Source of the DNA: a virus | Lineage: Duplodnaviria; Caudoviricetes | Virus record (IMG/VR): IMGVR_UViG_3300035498_000621 | Span: 32,001-96,000 of that record | Direction: 5' to 3' (one strand) | Length of the DNA stretch: 64,000 nt | Shown: positions 32,030-60,860 of the stretch, piece after piece | How the letters are laid out: the number at the start of each line of letters is the position of its first letter | How positions within the stretch are numbered: position 1 is the first letter of the stretch | Notes under the pieces: generated by a model | Databases searched by the model: none | What the model was told of the DNA's origin: nothing | Seen by the model: only the letters and a program-made list of their open reading frames with translations | Program-made: the position numbers and the translations under genes

Positions 32030-32210
32030 AAATTATATAATAAAAGTCTTTTCTATTTAATATATCTAAATTATTTGCATCACACCAAAAATCTTTATTA
32101 TTAAAAACTAAAATATTTCTACCATAATCCCATTTAAATATTCCTTCGAAATTAGGAAGTTTTATTAATTTTCCTAATTTTGCTTTAGGTATTATTTCAA
32201 AATATGTCAT
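32028..32210 (-). CDS. Small protein, DUF2829/Tad2-like; last gene of the minus-strand operon
   Basis: MTYFEII.KAK.GK.IKLP.F.G...DIL.R.DF; TAATG-coupled to the upstream gene; no in-frame TAG. Confidence 0.55.
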   Translation of the reverse strand: MTYFEIIPKAKLGKLIKLPNFEGIFKWDYGRNILVFNNKDFWCDANNLDILNRKDFYYII

Positions 32211-35200
32211 TATTCCTATGATTTTCTATATATTGCATGTCCAGTATCTTTAGCAGATCTGCCAAAACCAGTATTATCAAATATTAAATACTTCCAAGTT
32301 TTTTTACCCATAAGTACTTCACCAGTTTCTTTAAGCACTTCTACAGGAGTAGAATAAAATGGAGGATTCATATTTTCTCCAAAAAATTGTATAACATTAA
32401 TTGGGCCTTTAAATTGATCATATGATCTTGAAGATGATTTATATAAAATTTCAGTTACTAAATTCTATAATACTGGATTATCTTTCATTCCTTTTTTATA
32501 TTGTTTGTATGCTGGGTCTACTGCAAATTTAAATAAAGCTGCTAATAAGAATGACATAAGTATATCAGAAATTAATTTTCTCATATTAGCTTTAGCAACA
32601 TCATTTCCTTTTATATATTGATATGTAGCTTTTATTCCATCTTGCTTACACATTCGAGCAGCATCAATAACCGTGTACATAATACCTTGCATAAGTATAG
32701 GAACATTTTTAAGAACAGGAACACCTGTATCTTCGGTAGTTTGTCCGCCATCTTCTGTAAAGAATAAAGGTCTACCTTGCTCATCTGTGTCTTGTTCTGA
32801 AAATAATTTAGATACACCATTTTTTTGAGGTTTCATAAAATATGTATTTACAATACCATTCATCCAAGTAGTAAACATACCAAATAAAGTTCCTAAACAC
32901 ATATTTTCAGACATTGCTTTTTTACCTTTATCGTATGAACCATATATATTATCACCAACTGCACGAATACTCATAATTTCTCTATTAGAATATGGAGTTG
33001 GAAGGTCACCATCAGGTTCTATTGGAGATTCGGGGTGTTCCTAATTATATTCACGTATTTTAGATAAATATAATGAACGTTGTTTTTTATAATCAGGATG
33101 ATTAACGTCTTTAGCTGCTAATCTGTCAAATCGTTTATCTTTTTTCCAATCATAAACAAGGTTATTATCATCATCAATACTATATGCATCCCATACGCCA
33201 TCATGCATACATTTAGCTACAAATAAAGTCATTCTATTTAAAAAATCAGGACTTCTTAAAGTTCCATACATCCAATTATCATAATTAAAAATACCATTAC
33301 GACCAGATTTTGCTCTTTCTGTAATACGACCTACATCAGTATTAGACAAACGATATTTTAAACATAATTTACTTAATAAATTAACTGCCATAGCATTAGA
33401 TGTAGCATGAGTCATAACATATTGATATGCTTTTCTAACAGAAGCAGGATCAATATCTGTATTTAATTTAATAAGAGAACGAATAAAATTTTGTTGAATA
33501 CCTTCAAAGGCATCTCTAAACATTGAAACTACATTACCTCCAAGAAGCATATTAGTTACTACATGTTTAACAGGTTGTACATATCCAACAATTGCTTTTT
33601 CAGTTTTACTCATAATAGATGTATTAAATACATTTACTTTTAAATAGTCTTGTATATATTTAACTTCTTTTTCGACTACTTCTTCATTTCCAGCAAAATT
33701 TCCAGTTAAATGTAATTGTAAAAGTAAAGCTTTAGAGGTAACAAGAAGTTTATTAAGTTGAACAGTTGAAATATGTTTAGCTAGAAAATCTATCATAATA
33801 TTTTCAACATTTGTTTCAAAAAATTCTGGACCATATCCATTTTTTCTATCTAACATTTGTGCCCTCTTTTTAGCAATTTCTGTAGTAGAACTATTACTAA
33901 ATGGAATGCTAACTGAAAATGGATTTGTTAAAGTCATTTTATAAAATTTATCATTATCATTTCCTAAAAGTTCACGTTCTTCTTCAGTAAGATTATTAAC
34001 AAATTCATCAAATGCTTCACTAGCTTTTGTCATTCTTTTCCATGTATTTTTCATTTTAGCAGTAATTGCTTTTGCACTCTATCTAGAAGTAGCTTTTGAT
34101 GCTCTTTCTAATGGAACCCACAAATATTCTTCATGAGCTTTTATATATTCAGGAAGTCTACTATCATTAAAATCATAAGGAAATTTTCCATTATGAGTAA
34201 TCTATGCAATTTGATACAATATTGGTTTAAGCAATTCTCTTTCATGAGGTTTTAAATCATTAGACATATCATATGGATTTTTAAATATCATAAGATTTTC
34301 TCCAGTCATTGTATCTCTTTGATATAAATTATTATACTATTGAGCCTAATTACCAATAGACATATTCTATGCAGCAGTATATCCTGTTTCAGAATAGAAT
34401 TTATCAAATATTGGTCTAACATCTTTATCAAATGTACTTAAGAATTCCGAAGCAATAGTATCATGTGTAATTTGCAAATTGTTAACGACTATTCTAATAT
34501 TTGGATCAGGTACAGTAGCAGCTGTAAACAAATTTTTATTAACTGGATCAAGTTCAGTCTAATATGTAGGAGTTTCTCCAGATAAATTAAGATATGCTTT
34601 TGTTACTAAATCATATAAAATAGCCATATTTCTAGTTTGAGCACTTCCTTCTGTTAAAGTAGTCTTAAAATATTCAGGATCAGCAAATCTTTTATGTATA
34701 TCAAGAATTTGTGTCATTATATATTGCAATGCTTTCATTTGTTCATATTTAGTTTGAGCATTTTCAAGCTAATCAAATCCAAATTCTTCATATTCTGCTT
34801 TTACTTTGTCTGATTTTTTATCAACAATTTTAAGATATTCTTCTAAAATAGCTTCAACAGGATCTACAAATTGAGCAGCTCTAAAATTATTTTCTATTTT
34901 TAATTCATTATTTTCTACAATAGAAATAATAGGCTAAAAATATGTTTTATTAAAATGTGCAATATCAAATTTTCTAAAACTAGAACCTTCAATAGAACTT
35001 AATACTCCTAATGTTCCTAATTTTACATCACCTAACTAAGGTAAAATTTCATTAAGAAGTTCCATTGTTCTTACAGCTTCTATATTACCATAATCACCTC
35101 TTAAATCATTATATTCACCATCAAATTTATGACTTCCTAAAATATTTGTACCTTTTTTAAATCCAGCCTAAGTATTTAAATCAAATGCTGTTAATGATAT

Positions 35201-36772
35201 AATATCAACTACATTATCTTCATTTTCAAAAATAAGTACATTAGCATCAATTAAATCTTTTTTCAATTTCCAACCAGATTCTACAATTTTTCCTTCTGAA
35301 TCTAATTTAGGTAAATATTTATTAAATACTGCATTTAATGTAGTAGCAGAACCTCTTAAACCTTGTATTTTATCAAACATTGGAAATCCATGGTCATAAC
35401 TACTTTCAATTGCTTCTTTTAAACGTTGAGTAGAATAACCTTTTGCATCATCTAAATCAGAAATATATTGCTCTACAACTTTACGTATTTCTTCATTATT
35501 ATTTTTAGATTTAGCTGACTTAATTGTGTGTACAGTTCCATTTATAATAACATCGTAAGCATGATCAGGTTCTCCAACTTCTTTAATTACTAACTATTCA
35601 GTTCCAGTTGGATCAATATTAGGAGCAGCTTTAATCCATGCTCTAGCTGATCTTGCAATACCTTCTGTTCTTATATTAAATTCTGGAAATATTGCTTTAT
35701 TTACTTCATCAGCTCGTTCTATAGGCTTATCAGAAATATGAAAAGGAATAGTAGAACTTTTTATAAAAGCTTTTGCTTGATTTTCAAATTTATGCATCGC
35801 ATATTCAGCATTACTGTGTCTAGTTGAATATACTTTAGTTGGATGAATTGTAACTTTATTTACTTTAGAATAATCTGTATTATATTCTAATTGTACTGGA
35901 ATAATATTAAGAGTCATATTATTAACTTTTAATCCTTTACTAGCTAACATTTGTTTAAGAAATGCAAGTTGATATTTATATTTTTCCTCTTTTGTATTAG
36001 CCCATGTTTTTGGATCAGAAGCTGTAGTTTTAAATAAATAAAGATGTAATGTTCCATCTTCTCCGACAAATAGATAATCTATATGTCCAAGAATTTCTTC
36101 ATCCAATCCTTTAATTTTAGTAATAAGATTAATATTTTTAAAAGCTTTACTTCCACTAATTTTTCCTTTTTCTTTTTTATAAGTATTTTTTAATTCATTA
36201 AATAATTCTGTAAGTACACCAACACTATTTAAAGATTCAGGAATATCATTTTTAACGCTATTTATAAAATCTACATCAGTAGCTGTTTTATTTTGTATAT
36301 TTTCATTTACAAATAGTTTATGTAAAGCAAAAGAATCTTTTTGTATTTGTTCCCAACTTTTTATTATTTCAGCAACTTTTTTCTCTGCTAATTCTCGATC
36401 CATATCTTTAGATAATATATCTATTTGTCTTTTTATATAGTCTTCTCTATTAATAGGAGTAACAAGACGATTACCAGAAGGAAGAGTACAAGATTCACTA
36501 TCTATAAAATCAAGAATAGTTTTAGCTCCTTTTACTTGTGGTTCTCCATTTACTAATGAAGAAACATTAGCTGCTATATCAATTTTAGGAACATATTCAG
36601 CTTTTAATTCTTTAATTTTTTCTATCTATGCTGTTTGAGAAGCAACTCTACTATATACTATATCTGAAATCTTAAGCTTTTTAAAATCAAGATTTAATGT
36701 ATCTAAATGATTTAATAATTCAGTATATGAATTAAATGTCTATCCTTTTAATATATATTTACAATTAACCAT
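32210..36772 (-). CDS. Large virion cargo protein (~1520 aa, TAG read as sense) with a degenerate PD-(D/E)XK-like domain
   Basis: Fragments 32465, 33041, 35168 and 35594 share one frame and end in TAG; ATG at 36772 (MVNCKYILKG), TAA at 32210; GHIDYLFV..LYLFKT..KYKYQLAF. Confidence 0.85.
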
Positions 36773-39209
36773 AACATTGTTCTTTTATTTCACCTTCTCT
36801 AATTTGTTTAGAAATCCAATTTGAATACATACGTGATGTTTTTGTATTTGCAAAATCTAATCCTTTTGTCTAAAGTAATTGAGCTACATCAGAATTAAAT
36901 CTTGTAAATACAGATTCAATAGTTTTACCATAAAAGGATTGTAAATCATCTATTTCATTATTAAATATTATTTTAGTAGCATCTTTCATAAATCTATCCT
37001 AAGATATAAATATTTGTCTTAAATTTGGATCTATAGTTCCCATAACATAATTACTAAATTTTTCAACAAATATTTCTTCCATAAGATCCATTTCAGATAC
37101 TTCATTATATTTTCTTCTAAATCTATCTATTTCTTCTTTAGATAATTTACTTGCAACTAAATACATTAATTGTTCATAATTTTTTCTTAAATTAGGATCT
37201 GTTTTTAATACTCCTAATATTAAGTGAGAATATTCATGAAGTAAATCTGAAGATGATGCAATTGTAGTATTTATATAAATTTCATCATCTTTAATAAATG
37301 CTTTAGATGTATTAGCATTTATTTCTGGAAATTTTTTAGATATTTCTTCTGCTGATAGCATATTTATTTGTACTTTAAAATTTTCTTTAAGTACATCTGA
37401 AATTGCATTCATTAAAAGAATTATTGGAGTTCTTTTCTATTTTTTATATTCATCAATTTTAATAGCATCAGTAGGAATAATTCTATAATAATTTTTATTT
37501 TTACCTTTAATAAAACCTTTAGATTCAATATAATATGCTTTTTTAGGAGCATTATTAATCATATCAACAATTTTCTACATTGTAGAATCCTATCCAGTAC
37601 GTTCTCCAGATGGAACAAGTTCATTTAATTTATAAATAAATATTGTAATTTTTTCAGCATTATCTACTGTTTTAAAAATATTATTTTTAGTTTCTTCTGA
37701 AATATTCCATCCATTTACAATTTTTTTAAATGATGATAAATTTTGTCTGTCTTCTCTAAAAAGTCTATCTTCTCCATTTAGAATTCTAGTTCCTTCAACA
37801 ATAGGAACATCTAACGATTCTATAATAGATCCAACAATTAATGATTGTGAAGTATATAAAGTATATGAATCAAGTTCATCAGTATATTTTATTTGACCAT
37901 CATCATCTTTATAACGATCTCTATATTTAAATTCAAGAAATGCATTCTTTTTAATATCCTATTTTTCAACAGCACTGTCAATATATTTTCTTACCTCTTC
38001 TTCAGAATCATATTTTTTAACTTGATGTTGTTCAGTAAGATACCCTCTAGATGGAATAAATACTTCTTTTTCATTTTCTAAAAATTTATATATTTTATAT
38101 CCTTTATAATCTTCTTTATTAATTATGTCAAATGTATGAATAGTATCATATGAAATTCCATATTTTGATAAAATTGATCTAGGAACAGATTTTAAAAGAA
38201 TTCCTTGATTTGAATTACTTACATATTCTAAAGTAAAGTCAGGTTCTGCTGAAAATAAAGATTGTAATAATGTATAATATCCATATGATTCTTCATTAAC
38301 TTCATCAAATACTTTTGATAATTGTTCTTTTGTTTCTGATGCTGGTTTAGAAAAGAAATTATTAAATTTAGTTTTAGTATCTAATTTTAATTTTTCTAAA
38401 ATTTCTGGATGATAATTTTTTACTGCTGCAAATAAACCATCTAAAGTTAAATATTTTTTATTATTATCAAGATGTGTTATTTGAAGATTAATTGTATTTA
38501 CAAATTCGTCAGAATATGATATTCTATTACTATACTATAAAATAGTATTTAATGTTTTAGTTAAAATAGAATATGCACTACGATTATCTATATATATATC
38601 TTGATATTTACTTCTATTATAATGAAAATCTAGCATTAAATCAAAAATATTATCAATTTTTTTATTATTCTTATCAACTTTTTTATTTTTTTCAATAAGA
38701 ATTTTTTGTAAATCTTGATAATAAGCAGAAGTTTCATCAAAATTAAAAGATTGTTCTTCTAATTGCTATCGCACTCTTAAAAATTCAGCTAATTTCTAAA
38801 CATCTTCTTTAGTACCTTTTACTATAAATAATTCCTTACCTTGTGAATTTATAACTCTATTATAAATACTTCCGCCTTTTGTTGGTAATGTTAATTTATC
38901 TATTAACAATATATTAGCGTCTACATTTTCAGGAAAATCTACAGTATCAAATTCATGTTTTAAAAAATCTAAAGTACAATTTCCTATTAATCCTTCTTTA
39001 TTAATAATATTATTTAAAGAAACTTCTCCTAATTTAGATTGCTTATATAATTTATTATAAATTGAATCACATAATGTTGTATGCTTATCTTTATTATTTA
39101 TAAGAGCGTTTAATATGTCTTGATCAGTAAGTGTAGAAGGATCTGAATCTGTTTCCAGATCCAGATCTATTTCTTCTCCACCAACTGTAAATATTACTTT
39201 ACATTTCAT
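36765..39209 (-). CDS. Virion protein (~814 aa, TAG read as sense) with a C-terminal zincin-like HExxH domain
   Basis: Fragments 36999 and 38796 in frame; ATG at 39209 (MKCKVIF), TAA at 36765; LLHEYSHLI..MEEIFV. Confidence 0.82.
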
Positions 39210-42200
39210 TTGCAAATTTTCTATAATTGTATTGTACCTTGTCTTAATAACTAATTAATGGCATCTATAGTTTTATCAGTAATATTTCTTAAATTATCAA
39301 CTAGTTTATTAACTGTTTCTGAATAAACTCCTCCAAGAGTGAAATAACTGTTCTAATTATATATTCTAGCTAATGTATCATCTTTTGTTTCGCCATCAAC
39401 TTTAGGAACTATTTCACCAAATGGAACATATCTACCATTTTGTCTAATCATAAGAACTGGTCCATCTTCGGTATTTACTATAATAGTTGGATCTTTCTAT
39501 CCAATTTCAGAATTAACTATAGCAGCAGCTTCTTTCATCAAGTCAATAATACTAATTTGTAAATCTTTTTCTGAACCTTTATAGTCTAAATCTCCAACAA
39601 ATTGTAGATATTTTTTTATGAGTGAAAGTTGTCCAGTATTCTATATAAATGAATCAAATAATGTAGTCATTCTATCTGAACCATATTGATTTTTATTTGT
39701 AATTAAATTATATAAAACAAATATATCAGATAAAGATATACCATTTATTTTAATTTTCTATAATTCCTATAATCCTTTTATATATTTCTAAAATTTAACT
39801 TTACTATTAGGAGAATTTTCAATAGTAAGCATATCTATATCACATTTATATAAAGGCATATCGTGATCATCTCCGTTTATTAAAGACTATATAAATTCAT
39901 TGCTCATTAAAGATTTATCCTCAACTACAATATATTCTTTTTTATTTCCTTTTTTCTAAATATCAATATATTTTCCTTGTTTAAGCATTGGAATTATAGA
40001 ATTTTCAAATAACTATTTAAATGATGCTATATCACTTAAAGAATTAAATTCTATTTCTCCATCTTGTGCAGCTGGAATAACCTATCTTAATTCATTTAAA
40101 AGGCTAGATCCTTTTTTATATGGAATTTTAATATCTAACTGATTTACAAACTTAGCAATAATAGCATTATCTATTGCTTTTAATAGTCTAGTTTGCCATT
40201 CTTTAGACATATATCCAACTTTATATTCACCTTCTTTTAATTCTTTATAAACAACATCAAATTTTTTAGTTTTAATAGAAATATTATGATCAATATCTAG
40301 TACAGCTGAAAAAATTTCAAAAATACTATGAAATTGAGGAATCTAATCTATTATTTCAAAAATATTAATACACAATTTAACTTTATCATATCTATCTATT
40401 ATTTGTTGTTTATATTCTTCATCAGTGAATAATTTTTTAACATCGAGAAGTTCACCTTTAATTCCCATTTTCTCTTCTCTATCACTTAATATTTTTTGTA
40501 TAAATTGAATTCTTTCTTGTAAATCAGCTTTTGAAGTAGGTAATCCTTGATTAAATCCAAGAAGTCGTCCAAAATTACTAAATTCATTTGCTCCTTCAAA
40601 GATATTTTCAAATTCATCTATATCTTGTGGAATACTATTTAAAATTTCTTCTCGAATTTCTTCTTTGTTTCTTTTAGTAGCTTTATATATTGCTTCTACT
40701 TCAGTATCTATTACTGATTCTAATATATATTTAATTTCTTTAATAGCATTTAAAGCATTTTCGAATTCAATAAATTCTTTACTACCTTTTGGAAAAGTAT
40801 TTTCAATTCCTTCAGTAATGCCTTGTTTTAATTTCTTTTTAATTTCAGAAGTATTGTCAAGATTATTAAGTTTAGATAAAGTTCTATTGCTTAAAAATGA
40901 ATAATAATAATCTTTATAGTTACCTCTTGCAATTTTTATTGCATCTTGAATACTAAGATTCTATCCAGTAAATATATTTTGTTCTGTAATTGTATCAATA
41001 AATGATACTATAGGACTAGTCATAAATTTTACAATATCTTTAATATCGAATCCTAAAGTAACCATAAATAAATACATTTTAGCTAATTTATTACCCGCAT
41101 TAACCTTTGCTAATATTAGCTCTTTTGCATTCAATTTTGTTAATCTTATACTTTCATATAAGTTCAGACCATATCTTATTCTTAAATATTTAAGAATCCT
41201 CGCACTTCGGAATTACAATTCCTACTCTACTAAGTTCAGAATAAATTCTGCTTTTCGATGGTCGTTGCTCCTTTTTCCTTTTATAGGAAACTTGGATCAG
41301 GATTGTCCAATCTTTAACCTTATTACCATACCTGAATAATTACTTCAGCCACATAATATATTACTATTTATGCTTGGTAGTTAAAGCTCTAAGGATTTTC
41401 CCTGAGTTCACGAGGTATTTTATCCTACAGACTCTGCTTGTAATACATCTAAGTATTTGAGCTTATAATACATAGATGGCAGCATATATGGAAAAATTAA
41501 TTTTTCAAACTTTAGTCTTGATTCAGATTTAATATATATTTGAAATTGATTTAAATTATGTTGAATAGTACAATTTATTCCCCATTTTTTGATTAACCAC
41601 ATACATAATAGTTCATTTTCTTTCAGAGAAAAACAATGAGTAGCAAATATTCCATTATAAGTTCCATCATCCATAAACCAATATGCTAATGCTATAGGAT
41701 GATGTATTGTATCAAGATATTCTTGAGTTAAAACTTTTTTATTGTTAGGATAAAGTTCATTGTATATTTTAGTAAAAACAGGATGGGATTTACTATTTCC
41801 TCTCCATGACTTATATACTTTTCCTGTTCTAGTATCTAGATTTGATGTGTACAATTTATATGATCCCATAAATTCTCCAAGAATTTCAACTTTCTTAAGA
41901 AATAATTCTTCTTGTTTATTACTATGTACTAATGCAAGTCTAGAATTTGTATGTCTATTAAAAGTAGGGTTAGATAAATTTAAATCCCCTAATAAACTTC
42001 CTCTAATAAATTGGTCTTGAATTTCTGATAGAAATTGCTCAGTTTGAGAAAAATTTCTTATAATATTAAATTTTCCAGCATTTTCTCCTTTAGTTCTATA
42101 AGTTCTTATAGTAAGTTCTTTTACTCCAAAGTATTCTGCAATTTCTTTATCAGATTTACCTTCATTCCAAAGTTTTTCAAAAGTATCTTGATCTATTTGT

Positions 42201-45200
42201 TTTACATATTTTTTCTTTTCAATTCCAAATCTTTCTTTTAAGTATTTACTTACTGTTTGGTTTCCAATACCTAATTCTTTTGCAATTTTTAAATTGCTTA
42301 ATCCTTGATCATAAAGTTCTTTAATTTTCCCAATTGTTTCTTCAGAAATTTTTTTCATAATTGTATAATTTTTATTATATACAAATATAATATTACTTTC
42401 TGAATTAACCAAATAATTATTGCTGCTTACGAAAATCTGTAGCTGCAGAAAGAATTTGAGAAATCATCAAATCCACAGTAATATCTCCTGTTAATCTTGT
42501 ACCATATTTTTCCCTTAATCTAAGATCTATTCCTTCAAAATTAACATCTGGCAATGTATTTATTTCTATTGGTATTATATTTCCAGAAGCTCTACCTCTA
42601 ATTCTAGTTGTTTTAAAACCAAATAATGATTTTTTAACTTTATCAGCATATGGTTTTAAATCCTAAAAAAGTTTCTTTAACTCTGGAATATCACTATACC
42701 GTTTATCTTCTTCTATATCCTTTTGATAATTTTCATTTGTTAAATATTCTAAAACATTTATATATTCATACTATATTTTAGAAACTTTATTAATATTATC
42801 TATTATTGAATTAGATTTCTTCTAAAGAGCAATAACATCAATATTAGTTTTTTGTATAACATCATTTAAATAATAGTGCCACATAAAAGAAGCTTTTTCA
42901 CCATTAGCTGCAATACCAATTACATTTTTACCAGTAATATTTTGATATTGCATTAATAATTTAGTAGCAGGATTAAATAGAGTCATTTTTGAAGATTGTT
43001 CACCTTTAGGACTTGCTTCAGAAGCATCTCTAAATATTTCCATGTCAATAGGAGAATAAGCTCCAATCATATTTCTAAGATTCTAAACTGTATTCTAAAT
43101 ATGTGAAGAAATAAAGTTTTTACTAGCATCTTCTGTTAAACTTTGTGGAACTTGAGTAAATTCATGCATACGTAAATTTGCTAAAACTTCTGCTCCTTCC
43201 TATGTTGTATAATAAATATCTGTAATATTATTATTATTTAAATAATTTATTAATTTAACATATCCTTCTATTCTTTCAACTGCTGTTTTTGCACTAGCAA
43301 TATCTACAACAAAAGAATCAATATTAAATCCATATTCAACTTTATTATAAATTTTTCTTTTTGGCATTGGAAGATATTCAGAAGCCTTTATTGTATCTAT
43401 AGAACTATAATCAAATAAACTACTCCAGCCAACATATTTGCCATTTCCGTCAAATGACAAGCCCATTATGTACGCTTTGTCTATATCGTAATCGCTTCCT
43501 TGTACATTTTGTTATCTTAAGAGCTCTTTATCTCTTAATTCTACAGTTTGTTGTTAGGTTATACTGTAAGTTCAGACTATATCTTCATCTAATCTAAATA
43601 ATTAAGATTAGAGTCGGGCACTCATGGAGAAAATTATTGTTAGGCTCATTTCTCTAGTCGTTGAACCTTCTAAGCTCCTTTATCCTAAGCTTAGCTTGGC
43701 TGCTGATTGTCCACCTCTGGAGTTCCCAGCAATTCACCCGATTTAGACTTGGCAACAAGTACTTGCGATAATAATGTTTCTAAATAATCTTTTTTATATA
43801 AATCTTTATAACATATTACATATAATTGTTTATTATGTTCTTTACACCAATTTACTTTAATATTATCTTTTTCTTGTTGTTCTAATAAAAAAGATTCACC
43901 TCCAAACTTTTCATTAATTTCATAATGTTGTTTGCCTTGTATTTCTATTAATATATCAAATTCTGGCAAATAATAATCAAATCGAAGTTTATCTTTATAA
44001 ACACAATCATCAAATGTCTTTTGTGATTCATATAAAATTCCATATTTATCACAAAATCCAGCAAAATAAGCTTCTAGAGCTGAACTATATTTAGATATTA
44101 ATCCAAATTCAGCATTTAAATCTGGAAGTCTTATTCCATAATAATTAAGTAAACTAGAATTAATATTATAATTTTTTAATATAAGTATTGAAACATATTC
44201 TCTAGTATTTACAATTATATGTTTTATTTTATTTACAATAAATTCTTTTTTATCGGCATTTGAAATTTTACTTATATCTTCATTAAAATCATATTTCAAT
44301 GGTTCTAATACAATATTAGATATATCATCATCTGAAAGATGAGTTTTAACTTTAAGATTTAAATTTAATTCTTTAATATATTTTCTAGCTGTAGTTGGAG
44401 CACATCCAACTTTTTTAGCTACTTCATATGCCGATAAGCAATTTGGAGTAATTTTAATTATATCTTCTTTTAATTTTTTATATTCTTTGTCTCTATTACT
44501 TTCAACATTATATTTATTTAATATATTTTTTATAGTAGTTTGAGATTTATATCCTAATTTTGAACAAATATCTTTAACTGATATACCAGATTGATATAAA
44601 GATATTATTTCTTTTTTATAATCTTCAGCAGTAGGTTTTACATACTTAATATTATATTTTTTCTTATATGTAGTAAGTGTGGTAGTACCTATTCCTAATT
44701 CTGCACAAATATCTGTATTTTTCATTCCAGATTCTACTAATTCTTTTAATTTTGCTATTAATTCGTCAGTAATTTTTGTTGGTGATTTTCTTTTTGTTTC
44801 CATATAAAAATTTTATATAAGTTTAATATTAATAAGCAAATATAATATTTTTATAAATTACTTCCAAATTTGTCAATGGCGATTATTTTATTTTACCAAG
44901 TTTGCCAGTGACTAACAAAACACTGATTAGAAGCAACTCCCGTAAATCCTACATTCCTCATCTGCATAAATGACTGTAAAGTTTGAGCAGGAATACGTGA
45001 TGCGGTAAATTCTTGTGCTTTCTTAAATGATATAAACTATTTATGTGCTAATTTATCTATATATTGTCCTAATATTTTAGATTTCATACGATTACTATAA
45101 GTAACATAACCATCTTCAGCTTTACCAGAATTTACTAAATCTATTAATCCCTTAATTCTGTTTTCGCCATCCTATTTACCTCTAATATATTCAAGCAAAT

Positions 45201-48200
45201 CATTATCATATTTTAATTGTTCACTTAATCCATACAAAGTATTCTATAAAATATAAGCAGAACCAGTAGTAACTCTATTATTTACCTACATTCCATTAAA
45301 ATCTTTTGTATGATATATATCAGCAAGTAAATGACTAATAAAATTATTTACTTCTTCATCAAATTTCTAATCTGCTGTAATTGTATAAGTCTCTCCAGTT
45401 TTTTTATCTTTTCTAGTTAATTGTTGTTCGGTATATTCTTGTCTATGAAGAATTTTTTCTTTGATAATCTTTCTATTTATATTATATAAATCATATTTAA
45501 TAGTAGTATTACCAATTTCAGTTACTTGATTATTAGATATAAATTCTACATATTCAAGAACTTTATCTTCTCCATATCTACGATATTTTCCATGAACAAC
45601 TTTACCGTTTTTTTCAAATTTACCTGTTTTTTTATTATATTGAACATCTTCAACTAATATTTCTCTACCAACTTCAAATAAAGGTATATTATCATTTGTA
45701 GCTGCATATACTCTATATTTTATTGGACCACTTTGGCCTTCAGGATATTCAAAATCTTTTTTAATTGTATTTTTCCATTTTCGTCTAGTAGAGTCAAAAC
45801 TTTCATCATTTTGATGTAATGGTTTAAATGTAATATATAAGTTTCTATTATTAGTTTTTGTATAAACTAAATCATAATTATCAGATGTTACAGGAATAAT
45901 TTGTTCTGAAAGTCTCTTTTTAAAATAATTTTCACCTTCATCAATAATATCCGCTAATGAATCGCCATCCTAAAGTCCAAATTTAGATTTATATAAATTT
46001 GACATTATAATTTCAGCGGCTTTATTAGAAACTTTACCTTCTTGAATATTACCATTTTCATCTCTACTATAAATTTTTACTCCAACTTTATCCTTCGGAC
46101 TACGATAATAAATTCCTTTTTCTAAATCATCAAATACTTTCTAAATTAAAGTAACTTTATTATCCCCTGGAACAAGTTCTTTACGTTTATCTAATATAAG
46201 TTTTTCACCCTATTTTTTAGATATTTGTTTTGATTTAATTTTAGCACTAATCTCTTTTTCATAAAGATAAAGATTTTTAATCGGCCAACTATCAAAAATA
46301 TTCATTGTATGATGACCTGATTTATCATCATATTCCCATTGAATTTTAACTGGAGCTAAATTTCTAGGTACTTTAATATTTTTTTGATAATGAATATTTA
46401 TAGGATTTATTACTTTTTTCTTATTAAATATAAAAGTAGTAATATCATTTTTAAATAAATAATAATCATCAAGATTATCTAAACTTACTTCTAGTATTTG
46501 TGTTTCTCCAGTACCTTCAATATTATAACTAATTCTAACATTATCTGTTGGTTGATAAATTTCTGAACTAGTTTCAATAGGGATTTCATTCTATTTAGCT
46601 ATAAGATATTGATCTACAATTTCTCTATTTTTTAAAGCTAAATCAGTTTGAGTAGAAGTATATCCAGATTGTATAGCTAATTTTATTAAATCTTCATATT
46701 GATAAGTTTTCCCATCTATATCATATATCATAGATATATTATAGCCAGGAACCATAACAGTACCTAAACCAGGATATTGTCTTTTAATAGATTTTTTATT
46801 AATTACAGATACAAAAGTAGATAAAATAGTAGAATAAATATTTGGATCACTAAATGGAATTTTAAATTCATCAAGAGCATGATCAGTATTAAAATTAAAT
46901 TTCTATTTAATTGCACTAATAATGGCATTAGCAAGTCCAGCCTATCCTTTATTTCTAGATAAGTTATTCATTATAGTGCGACCAACTACATCATATATAG
47001 CGGATAATTTTGTTTCATCGCTATCTCTAAATTCCTAAACAGCATCCAATTCTACTTTTGATAAATCTAATGCTAATTTACCTAAAGCTTCATAAATCTA
47101 AGAAACATATTCATGCAATCTACCATTAGCATCAAGAGAAGAAATAACCTAAGAAAACTCAGTCATGTGCCCTTCATCTGCTGTATGATCAGCATCCATT
47201 TGAATACCATAACCTTCTGTACCTATTTCCATATAAGTAAAATCGGTATCATCATAAAAAGATGAAGTAGGATTTATATTACCAGCACCATTTTTTACAG
47301 CAGTATTATTTGCTAATACATCAATCATCGCTTCTTTTAATGGTTGATAATAACTATCCTAAGTATGATCTTCAGGGTCAGCTCCAGGTTTTAATGTAGC
47401 TACACTATTTATAAATTTAGTTACAGCAGAATTAGAAGCTTCTGAATATTGTAATATACCATTACTATCAATACTTTCTGAATAAATTCCACCAAGTGCA
47501 GTATGTAATTCAAATAAAGAATCAATGCTATGTAAATTTAAATCATTTAATATAGTTTCTGATTTTATATGAGTTCCATCTTTTTGAAAATAGTGATAAA
47601 TTTTCTTTTGATCATATGGTTCTGATCCAGTATTATCTACACTATATTCTATAGTATAATATACACCATTTTCAATTCCAAAATCATGAATTTTTTTATG
47701 TTCAAGCCCATCTCTATAAAATAAACCTTGAATTTCGCCATTATGTTCAGCAATGTCTTCTAAGAAATTAATTCTTGGATTATCTTTATATTCACATCCA
47801 TCAATTAAATTAATTTCTCCAAATTTCCAACTTCCATCATCATTATGCCATCGAATATTGGTCATTTTCTTAAATATATTTCTAAGAACAATACCATTTT
47901 TATTTCCTTCTGCCTAACGCATCCATTGATTTGTAATTGTATCAACAGCATATTTTAATAAGGTTGCTGACATATATCTATCATCATACCAATGTTGAAT
48001 AGGTTTTTTTACAGTTCCAACTTCACAATCCTAAAGTGAATTATTTTCCAAATTAGAACTAAAAGGATTAACAAATGCAGAACCATCATGCGCATCAATT
48101 TCAGTAGCTAATCCATCAAAATTAAATACATTAGCCTATACATCATTAATTACTGCAACTTTCATTTTATTTCTAATACCATTTAATCTACCTTGTAAGT

Positions 48201-51200
48201 AATATCTCATAGTACCAGGAATAATTACATTACGTTTAAACTAAGCATTTTGTGCAGCATTTTCTATTTTATAAATATTATCATTATATATTTTTAAAAG
48301 TCCATTTATCGCCGCTTCATCTTCTGGAGAGATATTTGGATCTTCTGGATCTATACTACGACCAAAATTTTGTATAGCTCTAGATATATCATAAAATGTA
48401 ATATTTCCACCATCATAATTAGGATTATATCCTTGAATAAATCCTTTATATAAATTTGCTCCTAATTGTCCTAAATCAAGTTTAGATAATGCTTTTACTT
48501 TATGATTAATTTCAGAACCAGTTAAACTAAACCTTAAATTATTTCCAACTAAATTATCAATCATAAAGAAAGTATTTAATACAGGATTTAATTCAACAGT
48601 TTCATTTTCTGATAAATTAATTTTACCAAAAGTTATATTTTTAACTTTTCCTGTTTTTTTATTTTTAACTTTTGCTAAAATCATTTTATTGCCTACAACC
48701 CACTATTTGCCTTGTGCATCAGAATCAGTAAGTTTAATAAGCATTTTCGTCATTTCATTACCAGTTCCATCTAAATATTTTCCATTTTCAGTATAATTTA
48801 TTTCAAATCCTAATCGTTTAGATAAAAGATCATTAATAAAACTAATTTTTTCTCTTTCTAAACGTTGATGTAAAGCTGATGGAGTATATAAATTATTAGC
48901 ATATTCATAAAGTAATTCATTAATAGATAAAATTTTTCCTGAAATTTCTCTATAATGAACATCTTTATATAATGTTACATTTGCATTTAATGCTTTTTTA
49001 ATAAACTAATCTGCTTTTGAATCATATTTTTCTTTTTCTTCTTCAGTTAATGGAGTTTTTAACCATTTCTAAACTAAATCAAGATTTACTTTTCCATTTA
49101 TTACAAATTCTGGAAATATTTTAGCATAATCATCTAATACCTAATTATATACTTCTTTATAAGCGGCACCAATAGTATTAATTATTTTCTATTCTACTAC
49201 TTCATTAAAATTAGCAGATCTTAAATCTGTAATTCCTATATCCTCTAAACTAACTTGATAAAGTATAAATTTTGTTTTATCAGAATATACTGTTGGTTGT
49301 GTATAAACACTACCATCTTTTAAAAATGGTGTAATAAATTTATTAACTATAGCATCATATAACAATTCTCCTTCTGTCATATTTTTTACTTGTTTTTTTA
49401 ATCCATCTCTAGTAATTACATCAGAATTAACTACTTTTGCATGAATAGCAGTAGGATTATTAACAAATAGCAATCTAGCAGTTGCTTTATTAGCCGAATT
49501 AGATCGAGCAAGTTGCTATTCAATTCTAGCACCTAAATATCCAGGACCATAATTAGGTAATTTATCACCATCAAGATTTGTAGTAACAGATTTAGAAGTA
49601 TCACCACTTAAAATGGCTTGAACAGTTGCAAAATCTTCAACCCATCTTTGTATTGTTCGCGTAGTATTTAACTAATAACCATCATATCTCTAAATAAAAT
49701 ATTCTTTTTTCTTTTTATCGCTTAAATCCTAAATTTTATCACCATAAACATCATAATCACTTAAAAATTTAAGTAATTCAGTTTGAGAATATTTATCACC
49801 ATTTGGTTTAGTTGCATTTTTAAATTGATTATATATATCAGTAACTAATAAAGCTCTAGATGCAGATAAAAACATTTCTTTAAAATTATTTTTATTCATT
49901 TTATTTATTAAATAAAATAATTTCAAACCATCCCTATCTTTTCCAAAAAAAGTGTTTTCAAACATTGTATCTAGAAAATCAAGAATTGACATAAATGTTT
50001 GTTCATCCTCATTTAAACCTTCTCGAGATAATAATCTATCTCTAGATTTAATAGTAGATAAATCAATTTTTTTAAGTAAATCAGTTATTTCTTTAATTTC
50101 AAGATTAGATGATTTCTAACCTTTATCAAGAAGATTTCCTGTTTTTGAAACAATTTTAAATTGTTTATTTTTTCCATTTACATTTAAAGTTACTATATAA
50201 TCCTTTTTATTAGAAGTTTCAATTTTAAAACGGTCTAAAATATCCTATTTATTATCTCTATTTATAGTAACTTTGTTTATATTATTAACAATATCAAATT
50301 TTGTTCTATTAGTTGAATATCGTACTTTTATAGAAGTTTCAATTATTTCAGAATCATGATCATATGTTGTTTGTAAATAATTCATCATTACATTAGAATT
50401 ACAAACTCCTAATAATGTATCAATAAGATTATATCTATCAGTATAACCATGTTCTTTTGTATATTCATTTTCAATAGTTTTCCAAGAATCTTTTCCTTTA
50501 AATACAGTTCTATATATAGAATATAAATAATTTATAGTATTTGAATCAAGTCCAAGTTTTTCTAATTCACTCAATAAAGTAATATTATTTTTATTTTCAA
50601 ACAATCGACTAAAAATAATTTCTAAATTTTGTGAAGGATGATTGTCAAAATCACTTACAGCTTTTCTAAAATCATTATCATTTTTAATTCTTGCTCCAAC
50701 ATCAAGCAATCTACATATTGATCCAATAAAATCTTTAGGCTATAATTTACTAATTTCTATAGATCGTGTATCATAATTATAAAGCGGAATACTCTTAATA
50801 AGAACTTGTTGAAATTTACTCATTTCTTTAAGAGAATCACGATTTTCTATACCAAAATTTCTATTTACAGCATTTTTATTTCCTCTAGTAAAAGAATATT
50901 TATAAGACACTTTAGTAATTCCATCATTTTTTTCTATTACTATAGGTTGATCATAATTATAATTAATATCAATATAATCACCAAAACATTCTTTTATAAT
51001 ATCATCAAAATATGTAAGATTTACATATGCATTAATTGCTTCATATTCTAAATTATCTTCTTTTCTATTAAACATTTCATTTTCCCAACCATCTTCTAAT
51101 GCCTATTCAAGTTGTCCTTTATTTTTTTTATCTTGAATATAATTATACATCATCAATAAGGCATTAGTATAATTTCTTTGAAGAATTTTTATTGAATTAT

Positions 51201-51843
51201 CACCATTTTTTCCTCGATATAAACTTTGTGGAACTTCTGATAAATCATATCCTTTACTTTTTAAAAATTTTCTAATGATTTTAAATTGTTCATCTTGATA
51301 ATCCATTATTCCTTGATTTACATCATCTTGATTATCAACAATTCTATGCTCGCTAATATCTATAATTGTCCTAATGCGCATTTCATCATTAAAATTAGTT
51401 TGTCTCTAATCATTTATAGCAGTACTATCACCATAAATTTCTTTAAGCACCTCATTAAGTTCTAATTCTCTGCGCTAATCTTCAGTAATTAAATCAGAAC
51501 CGGCTATATTTGCCTAAATATATTCTTCAACTTTAGTTAATGGTTTTGGAAGTAATTCTTCTTGAAAATATTTTCTTATTTTATTCTTTACAGATCTGTT
51601 TAATTTAATAGGAAGATTTTCTTTTGCATCTAATTTTTCTATGATAGTTTCAATTAATTCATTTATACTATCTTGATAAGATTCATGATTATCAGATGAA
51701 TCAAAACTAATGCTGAAGGTTTTACCCTCCAGCATAGTTTTAATATTTTCTAATATTTCATCTAAATTTTCTCCTTTCAAATCAGAAAAATTTAAATCTC
51801 CTGAATGTAAGGCTTTACTAAAATTTGATTGTTTACAACTCAT
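39206..51843 (-). CDS. Virion DNA-dependent RNA polymerase (~3314 aa, TAG read as sense); exons 51843-44895, 43504-42435 and 41131-39206
   Basis: Splicing restores SRIPAQ..HWQTWLQGSDYDIDK (catalytic DxDxD) and LSAATDNAKEL; all fragments within each exon share a frame; ATG at 51843, TGA at 39206. Confidence 0.9.
41420..42358 (-). CDS. Intron-encoded LAGLIDADG homing endonuclease with N-terminal HTH repeats
   Basis: RGSLLGDL and ALAYWFMDDG motifs; likely start MKKISEE at 42358. Confidence 0.88.
   Translation of the reverse strand: MKKISEETIGKIKELYDQGLSNLKIAKELGIGNQTVSKYLKERFGIEKKKYVKQIDQDTFEKLWNEGKSDKEIAEYFGVKELTIRTYRTKGENAGKFNIIRNFSQTEQFLSEIQDQFIRGSLLGDLNLSNPTFNRHTNSRLALVHSNKQEELFLKKVEILGEFMGSYKLYTSNLDTRTGKVYKSWRGNSKSHPVFTKIYNELYPNNKKVLTQEYLDTIHHPIALAYWFMDDGTYNGIFATHCFSLKENELLCMWLIKKWGINCTIQHNLNQFQIYIKSESRLKFEKLIFPYMLPSMYYKLKYLDVLQAESVG
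42382..42413 (-). promoter_or_regulatory. Intron-internal Bacteroidetes-type promoter for the LAGLIDADG endonuclease
   Basis: TTTG, 20-nt spacer, TATATTTG on the minus strand, about 25 nt before the ATG. Confidence 0.7.
43691..44803 (-). CDS. Intron-encoded homing endonuclease: tandem HTH repeats plus C-terminal Vsr/DUF559-like nuclease
   Basis: Three HTH-like repeats; LRFDYYLP..ILIEIQGKQHY..KDNIK..WC. Confidence 0.85.
   Translation of the reverse strand: METKRKSPTKITDELIAKLKELVESGMKNTDICAELGIGTTTLTTYKKKYNIKYVKPTAEDYKKEIISLYQSGISVKDICSKLGYKSQTTIKNILNKYNVESNRDKEYKKLKEDIIKITPNCLSAYEVAKKVGCAPTTARKYIKELNLNLKVKTHLSDDDISNIVLEPLKYDFNEDISKISNADKKEFIVNKIKHIIVNTREYVSILILKNYNINSSLLNYYGIRLPDLNAEFGLISKYSSALEAYFAGFCDKYGILYESQKTFDDCVYKDKLRFDYYLPEFDILIEIQGKQHYEINEKFGGESFLLEQQEKDNIKVNWCKEHNKQLYVICYKDLYKKDYLETLLSQVLVAKSKSGELLGTPEVDNQQPS
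44837..44868 (-). promoter_or_regulatory. Intron-internal Bacteroidetes-type promoter for the second endonuclease
   Basis: TTTG, 20-nt spacer, TATATTTG on the minus strand upstream of ATG 44803. Confidence 0.7.
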
Positions 51844-54800
51844 ATTATACAACTATTATTTTTAATATTAGATAATGCATTAATTGTATTATTTAAAACA
51901 TTAGAATATTCAGGATCGGAATCATCTGTCATTGTTTGTAACTTTTCTTGAACTTTATTTACCGCTTTAGCAATAAGTTTTTCAGAAGCTATAGTAGATT
52001 CCTAATTACCTTTAAATGCTTCATTAATAACCGTTTCTATTGCTTTCTTTTCATCAGATTCTAATAAATTTGAAAGTTCAGTCATAGCTGCATTAATTTG
52101 AGAAATAACATCCTTGACAGTTCTTTGTGTTGAATTTGGTTCTGTAATATCATCCCAAACTAATTTTTTTCGTACTATTTGAACCGATTTTTTACTACCA
52201 TCATTTAAAGTCATTATTATAGCTTTTCCTTTTCGTTCATATGATTGAATAGATTTACCATTTAACTCTGGAGATGATGTAAAATAAATAAATTCTAAGT
52301 TATTTCCATTAATTTTTACATCCATTATTAAAGTATCCAATGGAGATAATTCTTGTCCTTTAAAATACTATGTAAATTTAGTATTTATTTCAGATTTAAC
52401 CAAATTATATAAATCTTCAATTGTATTAACTTTGGCTAAAGCTTTATTTGAAATAGTTATACCACTTTGAGAAAGACTTTGAATTGAAGCAGATTTTGCT
52501 TGTTCTAATATTTTATCAATTTCTGGTTGAGTAGATATTGGAGCCTATTGTTGAGTTTCTGGTTCAACGTATGGATCTAAAGAGATTCCTAGAATTGGAA
52601 ATCCGGGAACTACATTAGTTGAAAATAATTTTCTATTACTAGCAACAGGAGCACTAACATTTTCACTTCCATCTTCTTTACATACTAATATTGGATCTGT
52701 AAAGAATCCATATTTAAATTTAGCATCAGTAGCACGTATATCATCTTTATTAAAATCATTTTCTCTTGAAGTAGATATCATGCCATGGAACATAAGACTG
52801 AATAAATTTTCAATACGTTTGTCTAATATACCAAATGGCTATCCATCTTCTTTGTATAATGGTCTAATACCAGGATCAAATGCACCTTCTACAAAATCTG
52901 CATCTCTATCCATCTATACTTGATCGCCTGTTAATTTTTTTACTACTGATACCCAATCAAGAGTTTCATCTCCAAATTTAAGATAATATTTACTATTAGG
53001 ATTTTCAGCTAAACGATTATCAAATTCTTCAGGATCTACTGCTCTTACACCTATAAACTTATTCATTTCTATAAGTAATATAGGTAACATAGATAATGTA
53101 TCTTCACCAGGAAGATTAATTTCAGTATCTGTATCTTTACCTTCTTCATCATACATTTTAATAGATAAAGATCTATCTCTTGATACTTTTTCAAACCATC
53201 CTTTTGCTAATTCATTATCAATATATTTTAAAGCAATATCTTCTGCTTTTTCGCCTTCTTTTAAATTTAAAGGAATAACTTTATTAATAATATTATCAAA
53301 TAATGCATCAAGTACATCATTAAACTAATATGCCATAGATGGATTAATATAAATACCTAAAGTATTATTTACATCTTTATAAAATCCATCTTCTTTAAGA
53401 TTAGTAAGTTTTCTAATGTAAGCTCCATTTTGTGCATTATAACCAAGTCGAAATTCTCTTACTCGAGTAGCTAAACCATCATTAAAATCCCAAATTGGTT
53501 TAAGTTTCTTTTTATTTTCTTCTGAAACTTGTTTTCTATAATCTTCTTCATTAAGATATTTCTAATCTCCTTTAATTCTATTATATTCAGCATTATCTAA
53601 CTTACATAATTCTTCTACTTCTTTATCGGTAAGATTATTAGCTGTTAAAAATTCTTTATAATTAGCTATAAATCTCTTTAAATTAGATCTAAAATTCCAT
53701 GCAGATATATACATACGTATTGCCATTGGTTCAGAATCAAATGGAAGTTTATATGATACTCCTTTATTTGCAATAGTGTATATATCAGTATATTTGCCTC
53801 TATATAAAGAGCTAAACGATACACCTTCATTATTAAGAATAACCATTCTAACCTATGGAACTAAATCAGGATTTTGTCTCTATGCCATATATCTAGATTC
53901 AAGTTCACTTGGATTTAATAGCGCATTACTAGAAACATACATTACTGCTTTACCTTTTAAAGAAATTTCTTTACCATTAGAATCAGTCCAAGTCATATTT
54001 AATCCTGGAACATCATCAACTATAGCATAAATTTTAGATTTAACAGCGTACTCAGTTTCATTGTCATAAGGACTAAAACCAGTATTAATATCCTCTAATC
54101 TTAATTTTGAATCTCTTTTTATTAATGTAGTAAGTCCATTATTTTTTGGTGCATTAATTCTTTGAGTATATGTACCAGAATTAGATTGAGATATTAATTC
54201 ATCAATTTTATTTCGATAAGCAAGAATATTAGCATCCATTCCATCTAAATATTCTTGCAATTCAGTAGCATTTTCTGCTCCACTATCTATTCTTTTCTAA
54301 ATAGCATATTGAACAGCTGCTTTATTAGATATATTTGGATTATCACGATTTGGTCTTTCCCACACATCTGGATCTGATAATCCACCAATAGTTACTGTAT
54401 AAGTTTCTATTATTTGTCCATTATCATCTTTAACTGGAATTTTTGCTTTTAAAGTAATAACTTTTCCTTTAATTGCACGTTTATTTTGATCCAAATCTGT
54501 TAATCCAACTAATCTATTAGTTGAAGATTCATCTTCTACAGATACATAATATTCTACATCATTAAATGCTTCTTCTGGAATCAATAATTTAGTTTCAGCA
54601 GGAAGTCTATCATATAATTCAGTTCCATAAACTAATATAGATTTTAATTCCATTAATTTTTTAACCAATTCGTATTTTTCTCTACCTTTTTTAATTGTTT
54701 GTCCAGGTTGTAAAAATATTCCAAGGTCAGTTTTTGAATCATCTGAATTAACCCATTCATCTTGAGATGTATCAATTCCAGAATAACTAATATTACTATA

Positions 54801-60800: not shown

Positions 60801-60860
60801 ATCCCCAGCATCGAATGTAGGATTATTTAAAGTGGCTACAATCCAATCATTTTCTTTCAT
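51840..60860 (-). CDS. Giant virion/ejection protein (~3006 aa, TAG read as sense) with hydrophobic helices and an SF1 helicase domain
   Basis: 15 fragments (52002 to 60441) share one frame; ATG at 60860 (MKENDW), TGA at 51840; TGVGGAGKT, IIDEATH, LLGDDHQ, VQGREFDYVVID and YTMISRSR. Confidence 0.85.

Follow-up and report, generated by a model that had tools for sequence, protein, structure and literature searches.

Two putative mobile group I introns in a TAG-recoded virion RNA polymerase homolog of a large Crassvirales phage

We analyzed a stretch of 64,000 nucleotides (nt) from the IMG/VR virus record IMGVR_UViG_3300035498_000621 (record positions 32,001-96,000), hereafter called the window. 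When TAG is read through, its minus strand carries at 39206-51852 three long TAG-rich frames with two TAG-free open reading frames (ORFs) between them. Very probably these frames are the three exons of a TAG-recoded virion RNA polymerase (RNAP) gene of a large (at least 161 kb) gut phage of the Crassvirales, into which two mobile group I introns have inserted and whose frame splicing would restore. The whole record is a metagenome-derived contig of 161,412 bp with a completeness estimate of 89%; coordinates are those of the window unless marked as genome.

The scenario that we propose is as follows. The two best-conserved stretches of the gene, TW|LQGSDYDID and the invariant TD|NAK, would each have received an intron, the ORFs of the two introns being unrelated. 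Each intron would have brought along a homing endonuclease gene, free-standing and without TAG, that lies within the loop of helix P1, and an entire ribozyme core that makes up its 3' part. Once transcribed, the ribozymes would excise themselves; to form P1, the exon end would pair with a guide sequence located about 1.1 kb further downstream, with a U.G pair at the 5' splice site and a terminal G in the intron. Excision would restore a frame of 3,314 codons, in which a phage tRNA(CUA) would read 55 TAG codons as glutamine. On the unspliced RNA translation would stop at a TAA, located at the 5' splice site of intron 1 or five codons past that of intron 2.

The interrupted frame and its uninterrupted relatives

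All three exons and both introns lie on the minus strand, and TAG was read as an amino acid, glutamine. From the ATG at 51843 the joined coding sequence comprises 3,314 codons, 55 of them TAG (35, 6 and 14 in the successive exons), with neither TAA nor TGA before the terminal stop. An initial annotation of the window had assigned the gene to 39206-51843, which are its exact stop and start, and had reported in-frame TAGs in all three exons, as these counts bear out.

Exon 1 ends with ACT TGG T at 44895, and the AA that comes next produces TGG-TAA in the unspliced RNA. Exon 2 opens at 43504 with TA CAA GGA AGC GAT TAC GAT ATA GAC, T|TA forming a Leu codon four codons ahead of DYDID. At the second junction exon 2 ends with GCA GCT ACA GAT (42435) and exon 3 begins with AAT GCA AAA GAG (41131), which join as AATD|NAKE; here the unspliced RNA reads GAT-TTT-CGT-AAG-CAG-CAA-TAA. 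As the intron lengths, 1390 and 1303 nt, are both 1 mod 3, each intron shifts the frame. The initial annotation had described the first intron as lying within this Leu codon, with TGG-TAA in the unspliced RNA, and the second as splitting AATD|NAKE with a change of frame; the former was confirmed to the base and the latter in both respects. In the unspliced RNA an in-frame TAA precedes the DYDID codons and no start codon lies between the two, so that the catalytic loop could not be translated without splicing.

The same gene is found without interruption in close relatives. Four of five IMG/VR relatives (L002-L005) have an uninterrupted, TAG-recoded gene of 3,251 codons, and the fifth (L001) has one intron. 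In a comparison suggested by the initial annotation, the joined window protein was aligned with that of the intronless L004 (3,251 amino acids, aa): residues 6-2542 aligned at 45% identity and residues 2606-3317 at 42%, colinearly, and both junctions fall within aligned blocks, so that the alignment runs through them. At the DNA level the intronless genes read TGG (C/T)AG ACA TGG TTA CAA GGA ... GAT TA(C/T) GAT ATA GA(T/C) at the first junction and GCA AC(A/T) GAT AAT GCT AAG GAG at the second, both unbroken.

A full HMMER search with a segment of L004 as the query yielded 913 relatives, and the family consensus across the junctions (TWLQGSDYDIDKAY and SAATDNAKELIL) is identical to the spliced window sequence. 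In alignments of 16-31 full-length members the junctions fall where the family is best conserved, in ...ARIPAQxLQSFMxMKxVGF...SHxQTWLQGSDYDIDKAY... and ...SAATDNAKELILxKINAG...; the motif G-S-D-x-D-x-D is invariant in 31 family members, and D-N-x-K is likewise invariant in the alignments of 16-31 members.

An exact search for the spliced junction 1 found no match in IMG/VR and one in JGI metagenomes, in an intronless relative (L016) that is 70-78% identical. This match was rejected as a transcript of the present phage: it represents an empty site and not splicing. Megablast of the locus against INPHARED phages gave no match, and tblastn with exon 2 returned two distant unannotated records and no others.

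The exons could alternatively be relics, either of a decaying pseudogene or of a chimeric assembly, as might be suspected of this metagenome-derived contig with its estimated completeness of 89%. However, the 9,942 nt of exon contain neither TAA nor TGA and are free of frameshifts, no residue that is invariant in the family has been lost, both intron ORFs are intact, and the same architecture recurs in independent assemblies (L009, L010, L012 and L013). We consider this explanation highly improbable, the least credible of those discussed here.

Group I introns and their insertion sites

Judged by the sequence, the two spacers represent group I introns, with the junctions listed in Table 1. The criterion was the Rfam model RF00028 with its gathering score of 50 bits; a search of the 161,412-bp record with this model gave two hits, introns 1 and 2 only. 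The last base of each 5' exon is U and that of each intron is G, the guide sequences lie directly 5' of P3, each ORF comes after the 5' splice site and before the guide sequence, and the ribozyme core occupies the 3' end of the intron. Covariation was assessed by pairwise inspection of two or three sequences. In mononucleotide shuffles a 7-nt guide match arises somewhere in a 1.3-kb AT-rich intron in 20-39% of cases; since chance matches are thus common, the guide sequences carry weight only through their position by P3 and the covariation. The proposal of the initial annotation that the introns are ribozymes is supported by the RF00028 assignments, the guide sequences, the terminal omega-G and the covariation.

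Intron 1 begins with AA.. (TAA when unspliced) and ends with ..AAAAUG (omega-G), giving the junction ...AAAAUG|UACAAGG; its guide GCCAAGU is the sole 7-nt match in the intron. An alignment with the ORF-less intron of L013 places the ORF in the P1 loop. The ORF product matched HTH_28, HTH_23 and HTH_7 in Pfam (helix-turn-helix, HTH) as well as PHROG 559 (2e-21) and PHROG 9084, 'homing endonuclease' (1e-18). At the same site L012 has an intron of 579 nt with a 100-aa ORF remnant, and L013 has an intron of 307 nt with no ORF that scores 84.4 bits against RF00028. Comparison of the window with these two revealed compensatory changes in P6, P8 and P9.1. The final ~30 codons of the intron-1 ORF (window 43691-43790) are themselves ribozyme sequence (guide and P3-P6), read up to the first TAA; this ribozyme stretch is nearly identical in the ORF-less L013 intron.

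Intron 2 begins with UUUCGUAAGCAGCAAUAA, which brings a TAA five codons in, and ends with ..AAAAUUG (omega-G), giving the junction ...AAAAUUG|AAUGCA. Its ORF product contains LAGLIDADG_2 (PF03161; 114 bits, E 7.9e-33, residues 134-302, above the cut-off) and matched PHROG 11023. A homologous intron with 79% identity occupies the same site in L010, where the exon end CUACUGAU and the guide GUCAGUAG show a compensatory P1 change from A-U to U-A between partners about 1 kb apart. P7 is GACCA/UGGUC in the window and GACUA/UAGUC in L010, and three further compensatory pairs were found in P3 and P9. In L010 (L010:4888-5825) the HTH-LAGLIDADG ORF is broken into pieces of 78 and 196 aa, the ribozyme core being intact with compensatory changes; this looks like decay of the endonuclease inside an intron that is still under constraint.

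Inteins were rejected as the identity of the spacers, which are out of frame, filled with stops and match ribozymes. In this AT-rich DNA (~25% GC), the speed filters used in long Rfam scans hide ORF-bearing group I introns.

The insertion sites recur in the family. Of the 150 top-ranking family representatives, 68 show DxDxD without a break. Proteins consisting of exon 1 only end at TW|L (10 proteins), GS|D (4-6) or DY|D (9). These three sites lie within eight codons of one another, and at least 25 of the 150 representatives end at one of them. A further 33 proteins start just past the catalytic motif, and 12 proteins consisting of exon 2 only end at SAATD, the TD|NAK site. L001, L006 and L009 are interrupted at the DY|D site by introns of another architecture. 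Relatives range from no intron (L002-L005) through one (L001) to two, with ORF-less (L013) and decayed-ORF copies (L012, L010). Such presence and absence among close relatives argues for selfish mobile introns and not for a regulatory module. The pattern is, on the sequences compared, that of homing elements targeting invariant sequence at recurrent hot spots, and the endonucleases would be expected to cut intronless alleles. Other group I introns were located at GS|D and DY|D (L001:8965-10000, L006:7945-8990, L009 at ~1756-2790 and L010:2702-3980); the introns of L001 and L006 have their ORF downstream of P3-P7 instead of in the P1 loop, with partial RF00028 hits flanking it.

The same breakpoints could be taken to mean that no splicing occurs and that the three ORFs are translated apart, their products assembling into a split multi-subunit RNAP as in jumbo phages. 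Exon 2 does have an ATG (MGLSFDG), exon 3 has an in-frame TTG at its 5' edge, and gene callers output such pieces in many relatives. However, the in-frame TAA and the lack of a following start would leave the catalytic segment LQGSDYDIDKAYI untranslated, both spacers are predicted group I ribozymes with covariation, and the breaks disrupt invariant motifs that 68 of the 150 top representatives have in one piece. We therefore regard a split enzyme as very improbable and retain the interpretation of spliced exons. The initial annotation overstated the case in holding that the gene would be missed altogether by standard annotation: callers that read TAG as Gln recover exon-sized proteins, but the 13 residues of LQGSDYDIDKAYI, which include the catalytic motif, are indeed lost.

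Table 1. Predicted features of the candidate virion RNAP gene and its two introns (window coordinates)
Feature	Position	Strand	Remarks
Exon 1	51843-44895	minus	35 in-frame TAG; ATG at 51843; ends ...HWQTW + T of Leu codon
Intron 1	44894-43505	minus	1390 nt
Intron-1 ORF	43691-44803	minus	370 aa, zero TAG; three HTH modules + C-terminal nuclease-like domain
Intron-1 catalytic core (P3-P9)	43559-43785	minus	RF00028 76.8 bits, E 4.7e-20 (narrow scan); 81.7 bits (own-genome search)
Intron-1 internal guide sequence GCCAAGU	43753-43747	minus	pairs with exon-1 end ACUUGGU, U.G at splice site (P1)
Exon 2	43504-42435	minus	1070 nt, 6 TAG; opens with last two bases of Leu codon, then QGSDYDID; ends ...SAATD
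Catalytic DxDxD (DYDID)	43493-43479	minus	in exon 2
Intron 2	42434-41132	minus	1303 nt
Intron-2 ORF	41420-42358	minus	312 aa, ATG at 42358, zero TAG; HTH modules + LAGLIDADG homing endonuclease
Intron-2 catalytic core	41145-41452	minus	RF00028 48.4 bits, E 1.6e-11 (narrow scan); 52 bits (own-genome search)
Intron-2 internal guide sequence GUCUGUAG	41432-41425	minus	pairs with exon-2 end CUACAGAU, U.G at splice site
Exon 3	41131-39206	minus	14 TAG; opens NAKELILAKVNAG; closes ...QKICK + stop (39206-39208)
Spliced junction 1			...CAAACTTGGT|TACAAGGAAGC...; core ACTTGGT|TACAAGG; junction peptide TWLQGSDYDIDK
Spliced junction 2			...GCTACAGAT|AATGCAAAAGA...; core ACAGAT|AATGCA; junction peptide SAATDNAK

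Polymerase identity and TAG recoding

The gene family was compared with gp66 of the Cellulophaga phage phi14:2, a protein of 2,180 aa in the phi14:2 record that corresponds to PDB 6VR4. Alignment of the family profile A2 with gp66 by hhalign gave two colinear matches. The first (L004 2244-2325 with gp66 1291-1374; 88% probability, E 3e-6) contains the aligned motif RIPxQ...GSD[YF]DIDK[AM]Y; the second (L004 2486-2690 with gp66 1487-1663; 95.6%, E 1e-8) spans the TD|NAK junction and sets SAATDNAKE against NAFVDNAKD. The catalytic loop of the spliced window sequence, GSDYDIDKAY, corresponds to GSDFDIDKMY of gp66 (1359-1368), the DxDxD of the beta'-like double-psi beta-barrel (DPBB). Alignments obtained with hhalign at mact 0.1 on the full profile were degenerate and were discarded.

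Predicted structures pointed to the same protein. For an AlphaFold2 model of L004 aa 2200-2760 (mean predicted local distance difference test, pLDDT, 82.8), Foldseek returned 6vr4_A as the sole significant match (E 2.4e-4), and VIA aligned 296 residues with 6vr4_A (6vr4 1301-1728) at Z 11.1, the runner-up reaching 4.9. A model of L004 aa 1150-1700, the region corresponding to exon 1, matched 6vr4_A at Z 12.3 (160 aligned residues, root-mean-square deviation 2.8 A), followed by QDE-1 (Z 6.2-6.4), RDR2 (Z 5.8) and cellular RNAP subunits (Z 4-5). Such likeness in fold to the RNA interference polymerases QDE-1 and RDR2 and to cellular RNAP subunits is the published signature of gp66. On this fold match the beta-like DPBB region is assigned to exon 1; hhalign of that region with the gp66 sequence gave nothing (0.9% probability), whereas the fold comparison did match. 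Together, the profile alignments and structural models support the joined gene as a homolog of crAss-like virion RNAPs of the phi14:2 gp66 type; a crAss-like virion RNAP had been suggested by the initial annotation.

The candidate gene sits in a run of giant late genes on the minus strand, like gp076-gp078 of phi14:2. A polymerase of the gp66 type would be packaged in the virion and would transcribe early genes. Its neighbors (window 51840-60860 and 32210-39209) are giant TAG-recoded genes for proteins of 3006, 814 and 1520 aa. Starts and stops of these genes overlap, as in ATGA at 51840-51843, which combines the RNAP ATG with the TGA of the upstream gene. The block is syntenic with L001-L005 and recalls the gp076-gp078 block of phi14:2. 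Assignment of the genome to Crassvirales is based on the marker Crass_capsid (Pfam PF23898, E 4.4e-15) in the ORF at genome 116771-118198.

Decoding of TAG as Gln in all three exons is supported by several features of the sequence. Across the whole genome, recoding is limited to the late block, where most ORFs contain 1-3 TAG in every 100 codons and CAG hardly occurs; the plus-strand ORFs at genome 9.5-64 kb are free of in-frame TAG, save one ORF with a single TAG. Opposite the TAG codons of the window, homologs have Q in 17.8% of cases; for CAA codons the figure is 19.2%. The near-invariant Q of WQTW, three codons before the first junction, shows the equivalence of TAG and Gln codons in one alignment column: L003-L005 (near 9960) use TAG there, L002 uses CAG and the window CAA. 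This is possibly also a difference between homing-site variants.

ARAGORN identified a tRNA(CUA) at genome c[160755-160842], on the minus strand and outside the window. Its D-arm, anticodon stem and U1-A72 resemble those of the 72-nt tRNA-Gln(UUG) of the phage (genome 7871-7942), and it could be a suppressor of Gln origin whose variable arm is an insertion. With 55 TAG codons in one gene, near-complete reassignment would be needed rather than leaky suppression. Published work on crAss-like phages describes TAG read as Gln, backed by proteomics (PMC7886860; PMC9523058).

Some late-block ORFs are free of TAG. They include the major capsid protein gene and a PD-(D/E)XK nuclease gene (the L014/L015 loci, genome 116771-118198 and 145893-146795, the nuclease being the latter), as well as two unassigned ORFs at genome 113732-114694 and 115815-116678. 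The most abundant virion protein seems to avoid the reassigned codon.

Several results weigh against this interpretation of the locus. Searches of Pfam and PHROGs with the three exon proteins found nothing, and phmmer searches with exons 1 and 3 and an hmmsearch with a 16-member family profile against PDB sequences yielded zero RNAP matches. As plain sequence searches are empty, the RNAP identity rests on the profile-profile and fold comparisons, and these were run on the family profile and the intronless L004 protein (42-45% identical to the joined window protein and colinear with it), not on the joined protein itself. A first Rfam scan of positions 38000-53000 (15 kb, E<=1) detected neither intron, both being recovered by scans of ~300 nt, and intron 2 is borderline, its 48.4 and 52 bits lying on either side of the gathering score. 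Pfam and PDB sequence searches with the C-terminal 140 aa of the intron-1 ORF returned no family. The tRNA(CUA) is atypical, being 88 nt long with a long extra arm like that of class II tRNAs. Finally, in vivo splicing and TAG decoding are inferred from the sequence features described above, and GTP-dependent self-splicing of both ribozymes is a prediction.

Three-way dependency and comparison with known systems

The initial annotation was right that full-length RNAP formally needs two splicing events and TAG decoding, as the joined frame with its 55 TAG codons indicates. It went further and likened this to an AND gate of ribozyme splicing and code switching. Taken as an evolved device, such a gate would limit virion RNAP synthesis to a certain infection state. 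The formal requirement for all three events, the stops at or just past both 5' splice sites and the two TAG-free ORFs within a TAG-rich gene are what such a gate would lead one to expect, and a preprint contains the proposal that recoding times late-gene translation (bioRxiv 10.1101/2021.08.26.457843). However, recoding affects most late-block ORFs and not the RNAP gene specially; close relatives make the same protein with 0, 1 or 2 introns and with ORF-less or decayed copies, so that the introns appear to be dispensable mobile elements; and since the TAG-free ORFs of the late block include the capsid protein, freedom from TAG is no special mark of the intron ORFs. An evolved gate is accordingly improbable in our judgment. 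On the sequences compared, the dependency on three events is no dedicated logic gate but very probably a by-product: it follows from two features of these phages that are independent of each other and were known before.

The by-product might still be exploited. Recoding would then separate the mobility and interference of the introns in time from expression of their host gene, and the endonucleases would attack the DNA encoding the RNAP catalytic site in co-infecting intronless crAss-like phages. As both endonuclease ORFs are TAG-free, they could be translated from unspliced or early transcripts before tRNA(CUA) accumulates, and synthesis of the polymerase, with its 55 TAG codons, would have to await the code switch and the folding of the ribozymes. 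We put this forward as a speculative and, on balance, unlikely extension.

For crAss-like phages, recoding of TAG to Gln in late genes has been described together with suppressor tRNAs and an abundance of inteins and group I introns (Yutin 2021, Nat Commun 12:1044, PMC7886860), and the legend of Fig. 3 in that paper places an 'intron-encoded endonuclease' of the LAGLIDADG family among the genes of the transcription block. The same study noted RNAP ORFs disrupted within DxDxD in large genomes of the Zeta group and tentatively put this down to 'additional, yet unknown expression mechanisms'; the present genome is classed here at the level of Crassvirales. Introns were found there by their endonuclease domains, whereas here exact splice junctions, cores, guide sequences, covariation and an ORF-less intron of 307 nt (L013) were identified; some introns of the family lack an ORF and are therefore invisible to endonuclease-based searches. 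The window thus offers a fully resolved case of why crAss-like RNAP genes look broken in annotation, ordinary group I introns accounting for the DxDxD disruptions here and in many database relatives. Annotating such phages needs code 15 and narrow-window ribozyme scans, as otherwise no predicted protein retains the catalytic motif.

Like phi14:2 gp66 (6VR4), the predicted product is a single giant polypeptide encoded in a block of giant virion genes, with the RIPxQ...GSD[FY]DIDK[MA]Y motif of the DPBB and the DNAK motif. Unlike gp66, which has 2,180 aa and is encoded without interruption in the standard code, it comprises 3,314 aa encoded with two introns and 55 TAG codons, and plain HMM searches do not link the two proteins.

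In the jumbo phage PhiPA3 the virion RNAP subunit gene gp210 contains an intron whose endonuclease mediates interference competition, and an advantage in co-infection was demonstrated experimentally (Birkholz 2024, Science, PMC11620839). The window resembles gp210 in having a group I intron with a homing endonuclease in a virion RNAP gene beside the conserved catalytic aspartates. PhiPA3 has a multisubunit RNAP and an HNH nicking endonuclease, whereas the window has a predicted LAGLIDADG enzyme and an HTH protein with an unclassified putative nuclease, in two introns of a recoded phage.

Classical phage group I introns with homing endonucleases include those of T4 td (I-TevI), nrdB and sunY and those of SPO1 and Twort. 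They occupy conserved sites in essential genes, loop out their endonuclease ORFs, have early in-frame stops and are distributed sporadically among relatives, and the window introns are alike in these respects. The window introns differ in that their ORFs lie in the P1 loop and not in P6 or P9, that the host gene is for a virion RNAP, and that the exons rather than the intron ORFs use the reassigned stop. Introns and recoding in crAss-like phages are already known, and no new mechanism is revealed here; what this case adds is a second recurrent homing site, TD|NAK, beside the known DxDxD hot spot, the layout with the ORF in the P1 loop, and a clean allelic series.

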